From positions 454,038 to 518,037 of the forward strand of contig JBBDUI010000002.1 in NCBI GenBank assembly GCA_040903985.1: a stretch of DNA of 64,000 nt, written 5' to 3'. This document shows, piece by piece, positions 41,377-63,055 of the stretch. Origin of the DNA: Candidatus Saccharimonadales bacterium. Its GTDB lineage: Bacteria > Patescibacteriota > Saccharimonadia > QS-5-54-17. The translations under genes were made by a program, and so were the position numbers. Position 1 is the stretch's first letter. Each line of letters starts with the position of its first letter. Below the pieces are notes generated by a model. It was not told where the DNA came from and did not search any database. It worked only from the letters and a program-made list of their open reading frames with translations.

Positions 41377-41903
41377 TGTCTCCGGAAGGTGGCTACCGTG
41401 GTAACGGCGAGATTTCGTCCCCTACAATAGCAGCCCGAGAAATTTACGAGCAAATTGAGACCGAAAGTGTGAGCGATGTGCTCCGAATCGGTTTAGCCCG
41501 AGCACCATATACGGCGTGGGGATACGATGTGTTTGCCGTCGAGATGCACGGTGCCCAGCCACCAATTACCGGCCTTGATCCGCGTACAGCTCGTTTGCTT
41601 CTCTTGGAACACTGCGAGGATGCTAGTTTTGGCGGGTGCACGACTCCGGTTCAATCGCTTGTTCGCCGCACTGTCTCTGCCTTCGATATCGATAGCGGAG
41701 CAGCTTGGCAAGGAGTCGATGAGGTAGAAGGAAATACCTTTTTGACATCAGGGAGATTAAAACAAGCTTACAGTAAGGACAACCAAGGTCAGCATTTCAT
41801 GCTACAGGTTGAGTTTGTTTATGCTGATCAAGGTCAAGGCCGGCTAGTTGATGAGGAGACATTACGAGTATTAGCGCAAATTCATGCGCGTACTACACTC
41901 TAG
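41376..41903 (+). CDS. hypothetical protein
   Basis: ORF of 175 aa. ATGA overlap with the hup stop. Confidence 0.4.
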   Translation: MSPEGGYRGNGEISSPTIAAREIYEQIETESVSDVLRIGLARAPYTAWGYDVFAVEMHGAQPPITGLDPRTARLLLLEHCEDASFGGCTTPVQSLVRRTVSAFDIDSGAAWQGVDEVEGNTFLTSGRLKQAYSKDNQGQHFMLQVEFVYADQGQGRLVDEETLRVLAQIHARTTL

Positions 41904-41983
41904 TGTAGATTTATTACCCCTGAATAGTTATAATCAACAACCGTACGTCAGATTAATCAGTTCCTCCGCTGGAATCACGGGAC

Positions 41984-42023
41984 AATCTTCAAAACCTGTC
42001 CGATCGGACACTTTTTGAAGATT
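41984..42023. repeat. 40-bp palindrome, copy 3 (two substitutions in the left arm)
   Basis: AATCTTCAAAACCTGTCCGATCGGACACTTTTTGAAGATT. Lies 33 nt upstream of the tRNA-like fragment. Confidence 0.75.
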
Positions 42024-42056
42024 AAAGTGGCGGAAGGTGCCGATCAATGTGTACAC

Positions 42057-42103
42057 CGGGGTGTGGCCTAGTGGCTAAGGCGTCCGCCTGAGGCGGAAGA
42101 TCG
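42057..42103 (+). pseudogene. 5' tRNA gene fragment (acceptor 5' strand, D arm, and an anticodon arm with a 5-nt loop)
   Basis: 26 nt identical to the 5' end of the downstream tRNA-Pro (CGGGGTGTGGCCTAGTGGCTAAGGCG). The anticodon arm TCCGC-CTGAG-GCGGA is defective. It shares AGATCG, then diverges. No T arm is present. Confidence 0.5.
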
Positions 42104-42115
42104 GGGGTAAGAAGC

Positions 42116-42355
42116 GTGTTTTGTGTATATGTGCTTCAGAATTCAATAACCCGCAAAAGATACATTGGATATACTTCTAGTCTCGAAGAGCGTATCAGAA
42201 AGCATAATACGAATCACAAAGGCTACACTGGCCAGGCCGGTGTCTGGTCTGTGATTTATAGCGAATATTATGAGAGTAAAAGAGATGCGATCTATCGCGA
42301 GAAGTTTCTTAAATCAGGAAAGGGTAGAGAATTTCTTGATAGTTTGACAGAATAA
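42116..42355 (+). CDS. GIY-YIG nuclease family protein (YhbQ/UPF0213-like, 79 aa)
   Basis: VYVLQN...RYIGYTSSLEERIRKHN matches the GIY-(x10)-YIG core, with a downstream conserved Arg/Glu region. GTG start immediately after the tRNA fragment. Confidence 0.65.
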   Translation: MFCVYVLQNSITRKRYIGYTSSLEERIRKHNTNHKGYTGQAGVWSVIYSEYYESKRDAIYREKFLKSGKGREFLDSLTE

Positions 42356-42367
42356 GTGAGTACCTAT

Positions 42368-42443
42368 CGGGGTGTGGCCTAGTGGCTAAGGCGCCTGCTT
42401 TGGGAGCAGGAGATCGTGAGTTCGAGTCTCACCACCCCGACCA
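42368..42443 (+). tRNA. tRNA-Pro (anticodon UGG), CCA encoded
   Basis: A cloverleaf can be built by hand. Acceptor CGGGGTG/CACCCCG, anticodon stem CCTGC/GCAGG with loop TTTGGGA, T arm GTGAG-TTCGAGT-CTCAC. Confidence 0.8.
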
Positions 42444-42516
42444 CATCAGAATATATTTAGCCTTATGCCCATCGTGATAGCGGCTTACGCCTTGCTTACC
42501 GTGGGCTTTTTTTAGG

Positions 42517-43752
42517 CTACTTTTTAAACAGGCTCGATAGCTTTAGGCGATCGTTGAACTCGAGCGCACCGAGACGGAAGAGTTTGGCTGCGAGCAAGAA
42601 GGCAAGTACAGTGGAAGCGATTAAGACCGTGATAGCAGCAGCGGCTTCAGGAGCATCGATATTGCCGAAAGTATTACGGAACAGCAAGGTGGTGGGCGAA
42701 GTGATCGGGAAGAAGGTGAGGAATTTCACTAAGGCACTTCCTGGCGCAGTAGTTATTACTCCGAAAGAGTAGAAGGGGAGGAAGGGTAAGATAAAGAAGA
42801 CGCTGGAGAAGGAGTTAGCTTCTTTGACACCGGGTACCATTGAGGCCACGCCACTCATGAGGGCGGCAAAGAAGAGAAAACCGAAGACAAGGACGAGAAA
42901 GCCGATAATAATCGCCATCGGGTCGAAGACTAGGGTTGAGAAGTCGATATCGAGCGGGAGACCGATCTGGTCTTCAAACCTGCGGGCAGTAAAGATACCA
43001 GTCACGGTTAAGGTAAGGAAGAAGAGTAGCTGGGTGAGAGCTACTAGGCTGACACCGAATAGCTTACCCGTTATCAAAGTCCGAGGTCGGACATAACTTA
43101 GTACCATCTCCATCGATCGGTTCTCTTTCTCTTCGGCGACACCTAGGAGCATATACCCCATAGAGAAGAGCAGGACGATGAAGAATATAGCTAGGAATAC
43201 TCCCGGTACGATGTAGCCGGCAGCGCCAGGAAGTCGCTCCCCGTCTTCATACGTTGTCAAATCACCAGTAGTACCTTGCTGAATCAGGGCTACAATCTCT
43301 GGATCCCCGATGGGCGCGATCAAGCTACTGTGTAAGAGCTGACTCGCAACTTCCGATATAGCCGAGGAGACCACAAAGTCATCACCACCGCTGATAATCA
43401 CTTCAAACTGGCGGGTCTCCTTGAGCTTCTCCGGGTAGATAATTACGCCACTTAGCTCCTCATCTATGACTGCCTCAACGGTAGCTTCTTTGGCTGCAGT
43501 CGGACGCAGTTCAAGGTTAGAGGCGGCAACTATATCCGGGTCTATGAGGCCACTTTCGTCTATTACCACTACATTCTCGACTCGTTCGGCAGCCTCATCG
43601 ATATTGCTGTCGGCCGTATGCTGAGCAAAGTAGCTGAGGCCGAAGATGGCCGCCATGAAAATGGGTAGGGCTAGCATAGTGAGCAAGAAAGCAGGTTGCT
43701 TGACGATAGTCAGGTACTCATGGCGAATGACTGATTTGAGTTTATGGCTCAT
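42517..43752 (-). CDS. ABC-2 type exporter permease with large extracytoplasmic loop
   Basis: N-terminal TM, a loop of about 150 aa, and a C-terminal bundle of 5 TM helices. It follows the ATPase gene with a 4-nt overlap. Confidence 0.6.
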   Translation of the reverse strand: MSHKLKSVIRHEYLTIVKQPAFLLTMLALPIFMAAIFGLSYFAQHTADSNIDEAAERVENVVVIDESGLIDPDIVAASNLELRPTAAKEATVEAVIDEELSGVIIYPEKLKETRQFEVIISGGDDFVVSSAISEVASQLLHSSLIAPIGDPEIVALIQQGTTGDLTTYEDGERLPGAAGYIVPGVFLAIFFIVLLFSMGYMLLGVAEEKENRSMEMVLSYVRPRTLITGKLFGVSLVALTQLLFFLTLTVTGIFTARRFEDQIGLPLDIDFSTLVFDPMAIIIGFLVLVFGFLFFAALMSGVASMVPGVKEANSFSSVFFILPFLPFYSFGVITTAPGSALVKFLTFFPITSPTTLLFRNTFGNIDAPEAAAAITVLIASTVLAFLLAAKLFRLGALEFNDRLKLSSLFKK

Positions 43753-51617: not shown

Positions 51618-51761
51618 AGTATCTTCCTTGACTATATTTTACAGTATACGTCAACCAGCTGACAAAGCTTAGGGAAGTTCATCTTGTGTGCAAGATAGCG
51701 AAACCAGTAAGTGTAGATAAAAACTATCCCGCTCTTAGGCGGGTGTGGGTGGGATAAGTGT

Positions 51762-51837
51762 GGTGGGGGTGGCTGGAATCGAACCAGCGACCAATTAGTT
51801 ATGAGCCAACTGCTCTAACCGCTGAGCTACACCCCCG
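51762..51837 (-). tRNA. tRNA with CAU anticodon (elongator Met or Ile2/lysidine type), CCA encoded
   Basis: Reverse complement folds as a cloverleaf. Acceptor GGGGGTG/CACCCCC, anticodon stem GTTGG/CTAAT, loop CTCATAA, T arm GCTGG-TTCGATT-CCAGC. Confidence 0.8.
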
Positions 51838-62980: not shown

Positions 62981-63055
62981 TGGTAGCGGGGGCAGGATTC
63001 GAACCTGCGACCTCCGGGTTATGAGCCCGACGAGCTGCCACTGCTCTACCCCGCG
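62981..63055 (-). tRNA. tRNA-Met (CAU) with initiator-like features
   Basis: Reverse complement is CGCGGGGTAGAGC...GGGCTCATAACCCGG...GGTTCGAATCC...CCCCGCTACCA. It has an unpaired 1:72 (C.U) pair and three consecutive G:C pairs at the anticodon-stem/loop junction. Confidence 0.75.

Follow-up and report, generated by a model that had tools for sequence, protein, structure and literature searches.

A compact GIY-YIG nuclease cassette at a tRNA-Pro locus of a Candidatus Saccharimonadales genome, with a partial tRNA copy carrying a conserved hairpin

A stretch of 64,000 nucleotides (64 kb) from a Candidatus Saccharimonadales bacterium (contig JBBDUI010000002.1 of assembly GCA_040903985.1, positions 454,038 to 518,037), hereafter the window, contains a short locus in which a partial copy of a tRNA-Pro gene, an open reading frame (ORF) for a small GIY-YIG nuclease and an intact tRNA-Pro gene follow one another on the forward strand. 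These three parts are best read as a single unit, namely a compact GIY-YIG cassette residing in a tRNA gene, where a working tRNA was kept by way of a partial tandem duplication. The upstream copy, designated tRNA*, appears to be disabled, with its anticodon arm replaced by a 15-nt hairpin and its 3′ part by the nuclease ORF, and the downstream tRNA-Pro is taken to be the functional copy. The hairpin is proposed as a candidate cognate cis element of the nuclease. A mechanism involving recognition of the hairpin at the DNA level, cutting and recombination between tRNA repeats was given a probability of roughly one half.

The tRNA* begins with a 26-nt segment (42057–42082) that covers the 5′ strand of the acceptor stem and the D arm and is identical at 26 of 26 positions to the beginning of the tRNA-Pro(UGG) gene (tRNA positions 1–26; 42368–42393), as the initial annotation had stated, and such an exact repeat lies far beyond the reach of chance. 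The hairpin, H1 (TCCGCCTGAGGCGGA, i.e., TCCGCC-TGA-GGCGGA; 42083–42097), stands in place of the 17-nt anticodon arm and is followed by AGATCG (42098–42103), which equals tRNA positions 44–49 (the variable loop with the beginning of the T stem) and after which, again in agreement with the first description, the tRNA homology ends. The arm had been rightly described as different from that of the tRNA, but a 6-bp stem with a 3-nt loop (TCCGCC/TGA/GGCGGA) suits it better than 5 bp with the 5-nt loop assigned to it. The 42057–42103 fragment has neither the T arm nor the 3′ acceptor strand and, when checked as a possible tRNA, scored 16.1 bits in Rfam (cutoff of 29 bits, E = 2.5) and was not called by ARAGORN. 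A purine-rich 12-nt spacer (GGGGTAAGAAGC; 42104–42115), which is not conserved among orthologues and is likely the ribosome-binding region, leads to the nuclease gene (42116–42355; GTG start, TAA stop, 79 aa). The intact tRNA-Pro(UGG) gene, with an encoded CCA (42368–42443), was called by ARAGORN and scored 70.4 bits with the Rfam tRNA model, and lies 12 nt past the stop codon, as previously noted. This second spacer (42356–42367; 7–14 nt in relatives of the same layout) appears too short to hold a separate promoter. The exact motif CCGCC-N3-GGCGG occurs a single time in the window, and tblastn across its whole length found one GIY-YIG copy only.

The identity of the nuclease, initially described as a YhbQ-like GIY-YIG protein of 79 aa, was borne out by sequence profiles and by structure prediction. 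The protein matched the Pfam GIY-YIG family (PF01541) over residues 1–68 with an E value of 3.8e-14 and a score of 53.2 bits (cutoff of 22.6 bits), and its GTG start at 42116 aligned with the ATG of the homologues. Profile matches were obtained to the UPF0213 structures 1zg2 (E = 1.3e-13) and 1ywl (E = 2.4e-10) and to Slx1 (E = 4e-5). The AlphaFold (AF2) model, with a predicted local distance difference test (pLDDT) value of 89.8, presented the GIY-YIG order of elements (beta-beta-alpha-beta-alpha-alpha), and its best Foldseek matches were the UPF0213 proteins BH0048 and EF2693 together with the nuclease domain of Slx1 (1zg2 and Slx1 at the top; TM score up to 0.70). On these grounds the protein is assigned to the GIY-YIG superfamily and to its UPF0213/Slx1-like branch. 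Eight residues were invariant among 31 sequences (Y5, Y16, G18, R26, H30, R61, E62 and R71), and the invariant Tyr, Arg and Glu positions are considered putative catalytic residues by their likeness to known structures. A motif that differs between clades (residues 66–71) follows the invariant R61-E62 and, according to the model, would lie at the turn between the last two helices, beside the presumed active site. No separate DNA-binding domain is present, the GIY-YIG core taking up residues 1–68 of the 79. The NCBIfam search gave nothing significant (18 bits for a group I intron endonuclease model, cutoff of 56 bits), PADLOC gave no significant match to a defense system, and no relatives of the nuclease were found in the viral contigs of IMG/VR, which leaves a phage origin unsupported. 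Three cluster representatives of the family (P0209, P0211 and P0213; 204–214 aa) contain two GIY-YIG stretches each and are probably read-through fusions of tandem copies. In Bacillus subtilis, the UPF0213 gene yazA presumably adjoins the gene of a tRNA-Val m6A37 methyltransferase, which we take as a lead only.

The closest homologues of the nuclease (66–76% identity) were found in the same genomic context at three loci, L001, L004 and L005, each with a tRNA-Pro gene 11–12 nt past the stop codon and a hairpin-bearing 5′ pseudo-copy of tRNA-Pro before the start codon. These three loci and the window constitute the filled sites, whereas the loci L166–L172 are empty, as they display the RNaseY-YmdB-HU synteny and tRNA-Pro(UGG) without the GIY-YIG ORF, the fragment or the hairpin. 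The tRNA-Pro allele is identical in the filled sites and in the empty sites L170–L172. At the empty site L166 (3213–3289), a clearly different tRNA-Pro(UGG) allele was observed, with changes in the D arm, the anticodon stem and the T stem. In one pair, L171 (empty) and L005 (filled), the flanks are homologous (about 95% identical downstream) and the two loci differ by about 325 nt. The additional 325 nt of L005 consist of a tRNA* with two hairpins, the ORF and the 12-nt spacer; the tRNA* directly adjoins the native upstream flank, and the intact tRNA the native downstream one. The cassette is therefore an insertion relative to the syntenic empty sites; the empty state of L171 itself may be original or may result from a loss through recombination between the repeats. 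The suggestion in the initial annotation of a tRNA-targeted insertion or partial duplication is thus upheld by the empty relatives, by the L171/L005 pair and by the recurrence of the arrangement at many tRNA species described below. Transcription from the tRNA promoter had been offered there as an alternative. The position of the native flank in front of the tRNA* in L005, together with the 12-nt gap between ORF and tRNA, suggests that the ORF is indeed expressed from the native tRNA promoter, and the constant co-orientation of ORF and tRNA in the survey agrees with this; use of the tRNA promoter and insertion are complementary readings, not rivals.

A recent insertion in the lineage of the window was rejected, given that synonymous substitutions are saturated among the four filled orthologous loci (dS, substitutions per synonymous site, of at least 1.6). 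The ratio of nonsynonymous to synonymous substitution (dN/dS) was 0.12–0.16 among the same loci, and the low ratio combined with saturated dS indicates that the ORF was kept functional over a long time. The cassette of the window thus appears old and vertically inherited. The block GGC(C)TAGTGGCTAAGGCG-hairpin-AGATC was kept in the orthologues L001, L004 and L005, with DNA just upstream that could not be aligned, and a second hairpin, in the D arm, is common to L005 and L001 (decayed in L001). Both the ORF and the hairpin are under purifying selection. The arm had been called degenerate and defective in the first description; this has to be abandoned in favor of a conserved, selected hairpin that is inherited with the nuclease clade. 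Nor are the fragments of the relatives functional tRNAs with a different fold, a situation that would have spoken against an insertion; they are truncated and carry the same hairpin.

The wider distribution was surveyed in 165 loci from one-genome-per-species and metagenome collections, comprising Patescibacteria, Bacteroidota and other phyla, which were located by a peptide pattern covering exactly two motifs (KSGKGR and KxWKSR types). In 105 of the 165 loci, ARAGORN called a tRNA that shares the strand of the ORF and lies no more than 120 nt away from it. One locus had an opposite-strand call, an artefact read from the reverse of a real tRNA, and many of the other loci were located at contig ends. 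Most of the tRNA-adjacent loci also had a hairpin-bearing pseudo-copy of the same tRNA. The tRNA identities included at least ten species, among them Pro, Gln, Met, His, Lys, Arg, Ser, Val, Ile and Asn. In another Saccharimonadales genome, a homologue with 54% identity (L002/L006) was found at a different locus with tRNA-Gln downstream, and upstream of this ORF the first 10 nt of tRNA-Gln are followed by TCCGCCTTAGGCGGA and then by tRNA-Gln positions 19–28. The hairpin therefore goes with the nuclease and the flanking fragment with the local tRNA. Hairpins like that of the window were likewise found in pseudo-copies of the local tRNA at L001, L004 and L005 (Pro), L006 (Gln), L022 (Met), L055 (Pro-CGG), L069 (Lys) and L083 (His). 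Closely related ORFs were nearly always found at the same tRNA species, and switches of tRNA are accordingly rare.

Two layouts were distinguished. In layout A, that of the window, a tRNA* made of the 5′ part and the hairpin is followed by the ORF and by the intact tRNA 7–14 nt after the stop codon (tRNAs for Pro, Gln, Met, His, Lys, Tyr and Asn), and 5–14 nt of tRNA sequence are retained 3′ of the hairpin in the relatives (8 in L004, about 12 in L001 and 14 in L055). The mirror layout B is commoner (more than 35 loci) and consists of the intact tRNA, often a terminator, the ORF and a tRNA* made of the hairpin and the 3′ part (tRNAs for Val, Met, Arg, Ser, Ile, Ala, Leu and Pro). The duplication takes in the terminator that follows the tRNA in 20 of 45 layout-B loci. 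The ORF of layout B usually runs into the pseudo-tRNA, and its stop codon is in many cases supplied by the D-arm TAG or by the loop of the hairpin (about 22 loci for the loop). The C-terminal tails GLISA and SEHPD(L) of many database GIY-YIG proteins, seen at the ORF 3′ ends of L030, L035, L051, L060, L063 and L072, are translations of the pseudo-tRNA and the 5′ arm of the hairpin, with the stop codon falling in the hairpin loop.

The type of hairpin was found to follow the type of nuclease. In the KSGKGR clade (C-terminal REKFLKSGKGR), to which the H1 hairpin belongs, TCCGCC-N(2–5)-GGCGGA was present in 61 of 81 loci, no further than about 150 nt from the ORF; four of these 61 also matched the pattern of the second hairpin, H2, and none of the loci had H2 only. 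In the KxWKSR clade (REKQIKxWKS[RK]), H2 (TCCCGA-N(4–9)-TCGGGA) was present in 47 of 73 loci and none had H1 only. Bacteroidota hold both types, H1 with tRNA-Met (Chryseobacterium and Aquimarina) and H2 with tRNA-Val (Pedobacter, Flavobacterium and Polaribacter), as do Patescibacteria, among which the window has H1 and a metagenome-assembled genome (MAG) of Gracilibacteria has H2 with tRNA-Met; H2 was also found with copies of the Arg and Asn tRNAs. The loci L008, L018, L024, L031 and L048 come from Pedobacter, Flavobacterium, Aquimarina or Chryseobacterium. The occurrence of both hairpins within the same phyla and with several tRNAs suggests that the type follows the protein rather than the host or the tRNA. 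The stems are near-invariant (61 perfect and 9 with one mismatch for H1, 65 and 15 for H2), and loci without a canonical motif showed compensated stems (TCCCGC/GCGGGA, TCCCGG/CCGGGA, TTCCGA/TCGGAA, GTCGCC/GGCGAC, TGCGCC/GGCGCA and ACCGCC/GGCGGT). The loops vary in length (2–9 nt in H1-like and 4–9 nt in H2 hairpins), which, together with the compensated stems, points to a base-paired stem-loop of a single strand rather than to a fixed duplex site. The same variation in loop length weakens the proposal of a double-stranded DNA palindrome for a symmetric dimer. The loop was TGA in 13 cases and TCA in two, a preference confounded by shared ancestry and by the use of the loop as a stop codon. In one locus, L116, an approximately 110-nt repeat (1181–1290 and 2432–2540; copies 1.25 kb apart) carries three H1-type hairpins outside any recognizable tRNA.

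The placement of the hairpin is tighter relative to the ORF than to the tRNA coordinates. H2 always replaces positions 29–45 of the tRNA copy. H1 replaces 7–17 nt at no fewer than eight places (including 10|19, 21|33, 24|33, 25|38, 26|44, 30|48 and 38|48) and often takes out just one strand of the anticodon stem. About 20 of 60 loci with an upstream hairpin have a compact layout, with the hairpin 10–33 nt before the start codon (about 64–150 nt in the others), and downstream hairpins fall between −15 and +30 nt of the stop codon in 74 of 85 cases. The nucleotides between hairpin and ORF match the local tRNA.

Tandem arrangements were found in relatives. At least five units of intact ORF and tRNA* with a period of 395 nt were found in L070 (2600–4762), and four such units with a period of 370 nt in L031 (2992–4352). 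In other loci, two to six tandem tRNA*-hairpin units without an ORF between them precede the real tRNA (L052, 1136–1400; L056, 2617–2800; L156, 1837–2200; L027, 2161–2820). The units of L052, L056 and L156 are truncated (leader, tRNA positions 1–28, H2, and positions 46 to about 53) and thus match in kind the fragment of the window, and those of L027 are full-length pseudo-tRNAs. The hairpin-bearing pseudo-tRNAs of L018, L019, L027 and L042 scored about 40 bits in Rfam, compared with about 70 for their real neighbors. ARAGORN named them tRNA-Ile(tat), tRNA-Lys(ttt), tRNA-Phe(gaa) or "???", an annotation pitfall.

According to the proposed mechanism, the Slx1-like nuclease would recognize its cognate hairpin in the single-stranded DNA of a highly transcribed or replicating tRNA locus and would nick or cut nearby, making the flanking tRNA repeats recombinogenic. 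Recombination through tRNA homology, with the tRNA* as left arm and the intact tRNA as right arm, could then copy the cassette into an uninterrupted allele, either by homing-like strand-annealing repair or by single-crossover integration of an excised circle, and the same recombination would yield the duplications and arrays. The ORF would be expressed from the native tRNA promoter, which now stands ahead of the tRNA*. Several points weigh against this proposal. Binding and cleavage of the hairpin by the nuclease are predictions, and sequence-specific recognition is putative for a catalytic domain of 79 aa standing by itself. The intact neighboring tRNA has no hairpin, so that a naive target offers no evident cut site, and the model does not account for a fixed hairpin that is flanked on both sides by the sequence of the new tRNA. 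The residence of closely related ORFs at the same tRNA type and the long vertical inheritance in the lineage of the window suggest that active mobility is rare or ancient, and relatives in viral contigs were lacking, as stated above. Duplication of the upstream flank was sought in 11 loci of the window type by comparing the 20 nt before the tRNA* with those before the intact tRNA, and except in L067 it did not exceed controls from mismatched loci (score of 6 for the window, with a 95th percentile of 6). Finally, the correlation between clade and hairpin represents essentially one deep split, seen through a search pattern of two motifs, and linkage alone could yield it.

The alternative that survives best, though tentative, is that the hairpin acts in RNA, the tRNA-derived transcript being a partner of the nuclease as an operator through which the protein represses its own translation, as an abundant decoy or antitoxin that restrains the nuclease by type III toxin-antitoxin logic, or as a guide with tRNA-derived flanks pairing to the tRNA gene. 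This would agree with the position of the hairpin, at a fixed distance from the ends of the ORF and not at fixed tRNA coordinates, with the location of all the parts on the transcribed strand along with the tRNA, and with the identity of the hairpin-adjacent nucleotides to the local tRNA. The H2 pseudo-tRNAs keep a full cloverleaf (the score of about 40 bits as tRNA mentioned above), and the arrays in which two to six hairpin units precede a real tRNA and a terminator stands ahead of the ORF resemble the ToxI repeats before toxN. G-T was the commonest mismatch in the sense strand of the stem (7 of 15 in H2 and 2 of 9 in H1), but with such small numbers the excess of wobble pairs was not significant. 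Moreover, DNA is what GIY-YIG enzymes cut, and this holds for the closest relatives of solved structure (Slx1), the fragment of the window folded as RNA no better than its shuffled versions (z = −0.10), and Rfam returned tRNA matches only, and no other RNA family, for the window and its relatives; a family for the hairpin-bearing pseudo-tRNA is absent from Rfam 15. An operator located 3′ of the stop codon would be unusual, the window has one copy of the hairpin and no terminator between it and the ORF, and a guide that exactly matches the essential tRNA gene next to it would be directed against the genome of its own cell. The more specific version, in which the tRNA-derived RNA is the functional partner of the 79-aa nuclease, with the hairpin as a handle for the protein and the tRNA flanks as a guide or as a titrating antitoxin or decoy, is considered doubtful.

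It is improbable that the nuclease is a free-standing homing endonuclease which cuts the uninterrupted tRNA gene of genomes without the cassette through protein recognition only and is copied there by repair, the hairpin being a passive immunity scar in the disabled copy. Presence and absence at the same site would be expected of such an enzyme, the tRNA* and the intact tRNA would supply two homology arms, and the GIY-YIG family includes the Seg and Tev homing enzymes, of which SegB targets a tRNA cluster (PMC2330249). A passive scar, however, would not keep a near-invariant 12-nt stem across phyla and tRNA species, nor would it be installed again in the copies of new tRNAs. The intact tRNA beside the ORF would also stay exposed to cutting, the DNA-binding domain to which Seg and Tev enzymes owe their specificity is missing from the protein, and there is no phage or intron context. 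A coincidence between a decaying tandem tRNA duplication and an unrelated housekeeping YhbQ-like gene that borrows the tRNA promoter is very improbable: UPF0213 genes are common (3,236 clusters, each with its representative, at 50% identity), the ORF is under purifying selection like a host gene and the cassette is stable in the lineage of the window, but the same three parts and the hairpin recur across several phyla at no fewer than ten tRNA species, conservation of the hairpin persists where neutral DNA has reached saturation, close relatives have empty sites, other relatives have arrays, and the single occurrence of the hairpin in 64 kb does not fit a generic terminator or processing site of the host.

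Among known systems, the cassette appears most similar in its workings to SegB, which represents free-standing GIY-YIG genes that home or amplify within a tRNA cluster. The SegB of phages T4 and T6 is also encoded by a small GIY-YIG gene next to tRNA genes and differs in presence between relatives (PMC2330249; PMC13096335). In T-even phages it drives the tandem amplification of a unit made of tRNA-Tyr and segB, and microhomology shared by the tRNA's 5′ end and segB's 3′ end truncates the segB ORF (PMC13096335), features that resemble the arrays of L031 and L070 and the cassette ORFs that read into the tRNA*, respectively. SegB differs in its length of more than 200 aa, its DNA-binding part, its phage location and the lack of a cognate hairpin or a hairpin-bearing pseudo-tRNA, whereas the cassette encodes a chromosomal catalytic core of 79 aa from the UPF0213/Slx1 branch for which no viral relatives were found. 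The likeness to the UPF0213/YhbQ/Slx1 proteins themselves extends to sequence, fold and conserved catalytic residues. Slx1 cuts branched and stem-loop DNA, and a hairpin substrate would therefore be in character for the nuclease. Slx1 also needs Slx4 and carries a RING/PHD domain, which is absent from the 79-aa protein. No report of an association with tRNA genes or of a cognate hairpin for UPF0213/YhbQ/Slx1 proteins was found in the literature searched.

Integrase-type tRNA islands and prophages similarly insert in a tRNA gene, keep a functional tRNA and leave a partial repeat. Such elements span kilobases, depend on an integrase of the tyrosine or serine type and duplicate the tRNA at its 3′ end, whereas the cassette has no integrase, a 5′ repeat of 26 nt, an insert of about 310–325 nt and a partial copy modified by a hairpin. 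With the repetitive extragenic palindromic (REP) sequences and their associated tyrosine transposases (RAYTs), the cassette shares a palindromic hairpin specific to the clade of an adjacent single-copy nuclease, hairpins that flank the gene and long vertical maintenance. RAYTs are HUH/Y1 enzymes and REPs are dispersed in hundreds of copies genome-wide, in contrast to a GIY-YIG enzyme whose hairpin occurs once in 64 kb and in tRNA copies beside the gene (the repeat of L116 being the exception). The ToxIN type III toxin-antitoxin and the OMEGA (IscB/TnpB) systems also place a nuclease gene beside a structured, repeated or element-derived RNA, and Bacteroidota relatives of the cassette have arrays of hairpin units followed by a terminator and the ORF, a layout absent from the window. 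The nucleases of these systems belong to unrelated protein families, the GIY-YIG protein is only a putative binder of RNA, and the window has its single hairpin with no terminator before the ORF. A description of the cassette was not found in the full-text literature searched, which is a limited collection and does not prove novelty.

With regard to the surroundings, the genes for RNase Y, YmdB, HU and a 175-aa protein precede the fragment, the ORF and tRNA-Pro, and a convergent ABC-2 permease gene follows. The flanking proteins show 100% identity to those of a Candidatus Saccharimonadales MAG (Patescibacteria/CPR). The 175-aa gene and the tRNA fragment are separated by a terminator-like inverted repeat of 20 + 20 nt (41984–42023, forward strand), which is 90% complementary and has the inner stem TGTCCGATCGGACA followed up by a T-run; it probably marks the end of the RNaseY-YmdB-HU-175aa string and the left limit of the transcription unit of the cassette. 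No integrase, transposase or phage genes were found among the neighbors of the cassette, and a homologue search with the 175-aa protein recovered only itself. A group I intron in the tRNA gene was rejected, as no intron family of Rfam matched 41850–42600 at E values up to 10 and the downstream tRNA is uninterrupted. The scan of 41800–42600 for sigma-70 promoters gave none, a model from which Patescibacterial promoters may differ. The GIY-YIG ORF (L173, about 2240–2480) was not called in the MAG record GCA_040876815.1, where a 614-nt gap stands empty, and the exact-protein look-up returned no record because the ORF is uncalled in the deposited MAG. Two tRNA-Met(CAT) genes of the window (51761–51836 and 62981–63055, minus strand) have neither a GIY-YIG homologue nor the hairpin nearby.

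Among the small "hypothetical nucleases" of bacteria, the UPF0213/YhbQ-type GIY-YIG proteins rank with the commonest, and no role has been assigned to them. In two large clades of these proteins, the present results place the gene inside tRNA transcription units, together with a disabled copy of the local tRNA and a clade-specific hairpin, and this hairpin, whether as single-stranded DNA, double-stranded DNA or RNA, is a concrete candidate substrate for proteins of the UPF0213 type. The cassettes likely explain the tRNA pseudo-copies and tRNA-like arrays of Bacteroidota and Patescibacteria, the assembly breaks at such loci, odd calls such as "tRNA-Ile(tat)" and "tRNA-Lys(ttt)", and the GLISA and SEHPD tails of database proteins. 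If the hairpin acts in RNA, it would represent a new minimal pairing of nuclease and RNA on a tRNA scaffold; to our knowledge, no RNA-associated system of this kind has been known for the GIY-YIG superfamily. If it acts in DNA, it would represent a new way for a selfish cassette of ~300 bp to occupy essential genes non-lethally.

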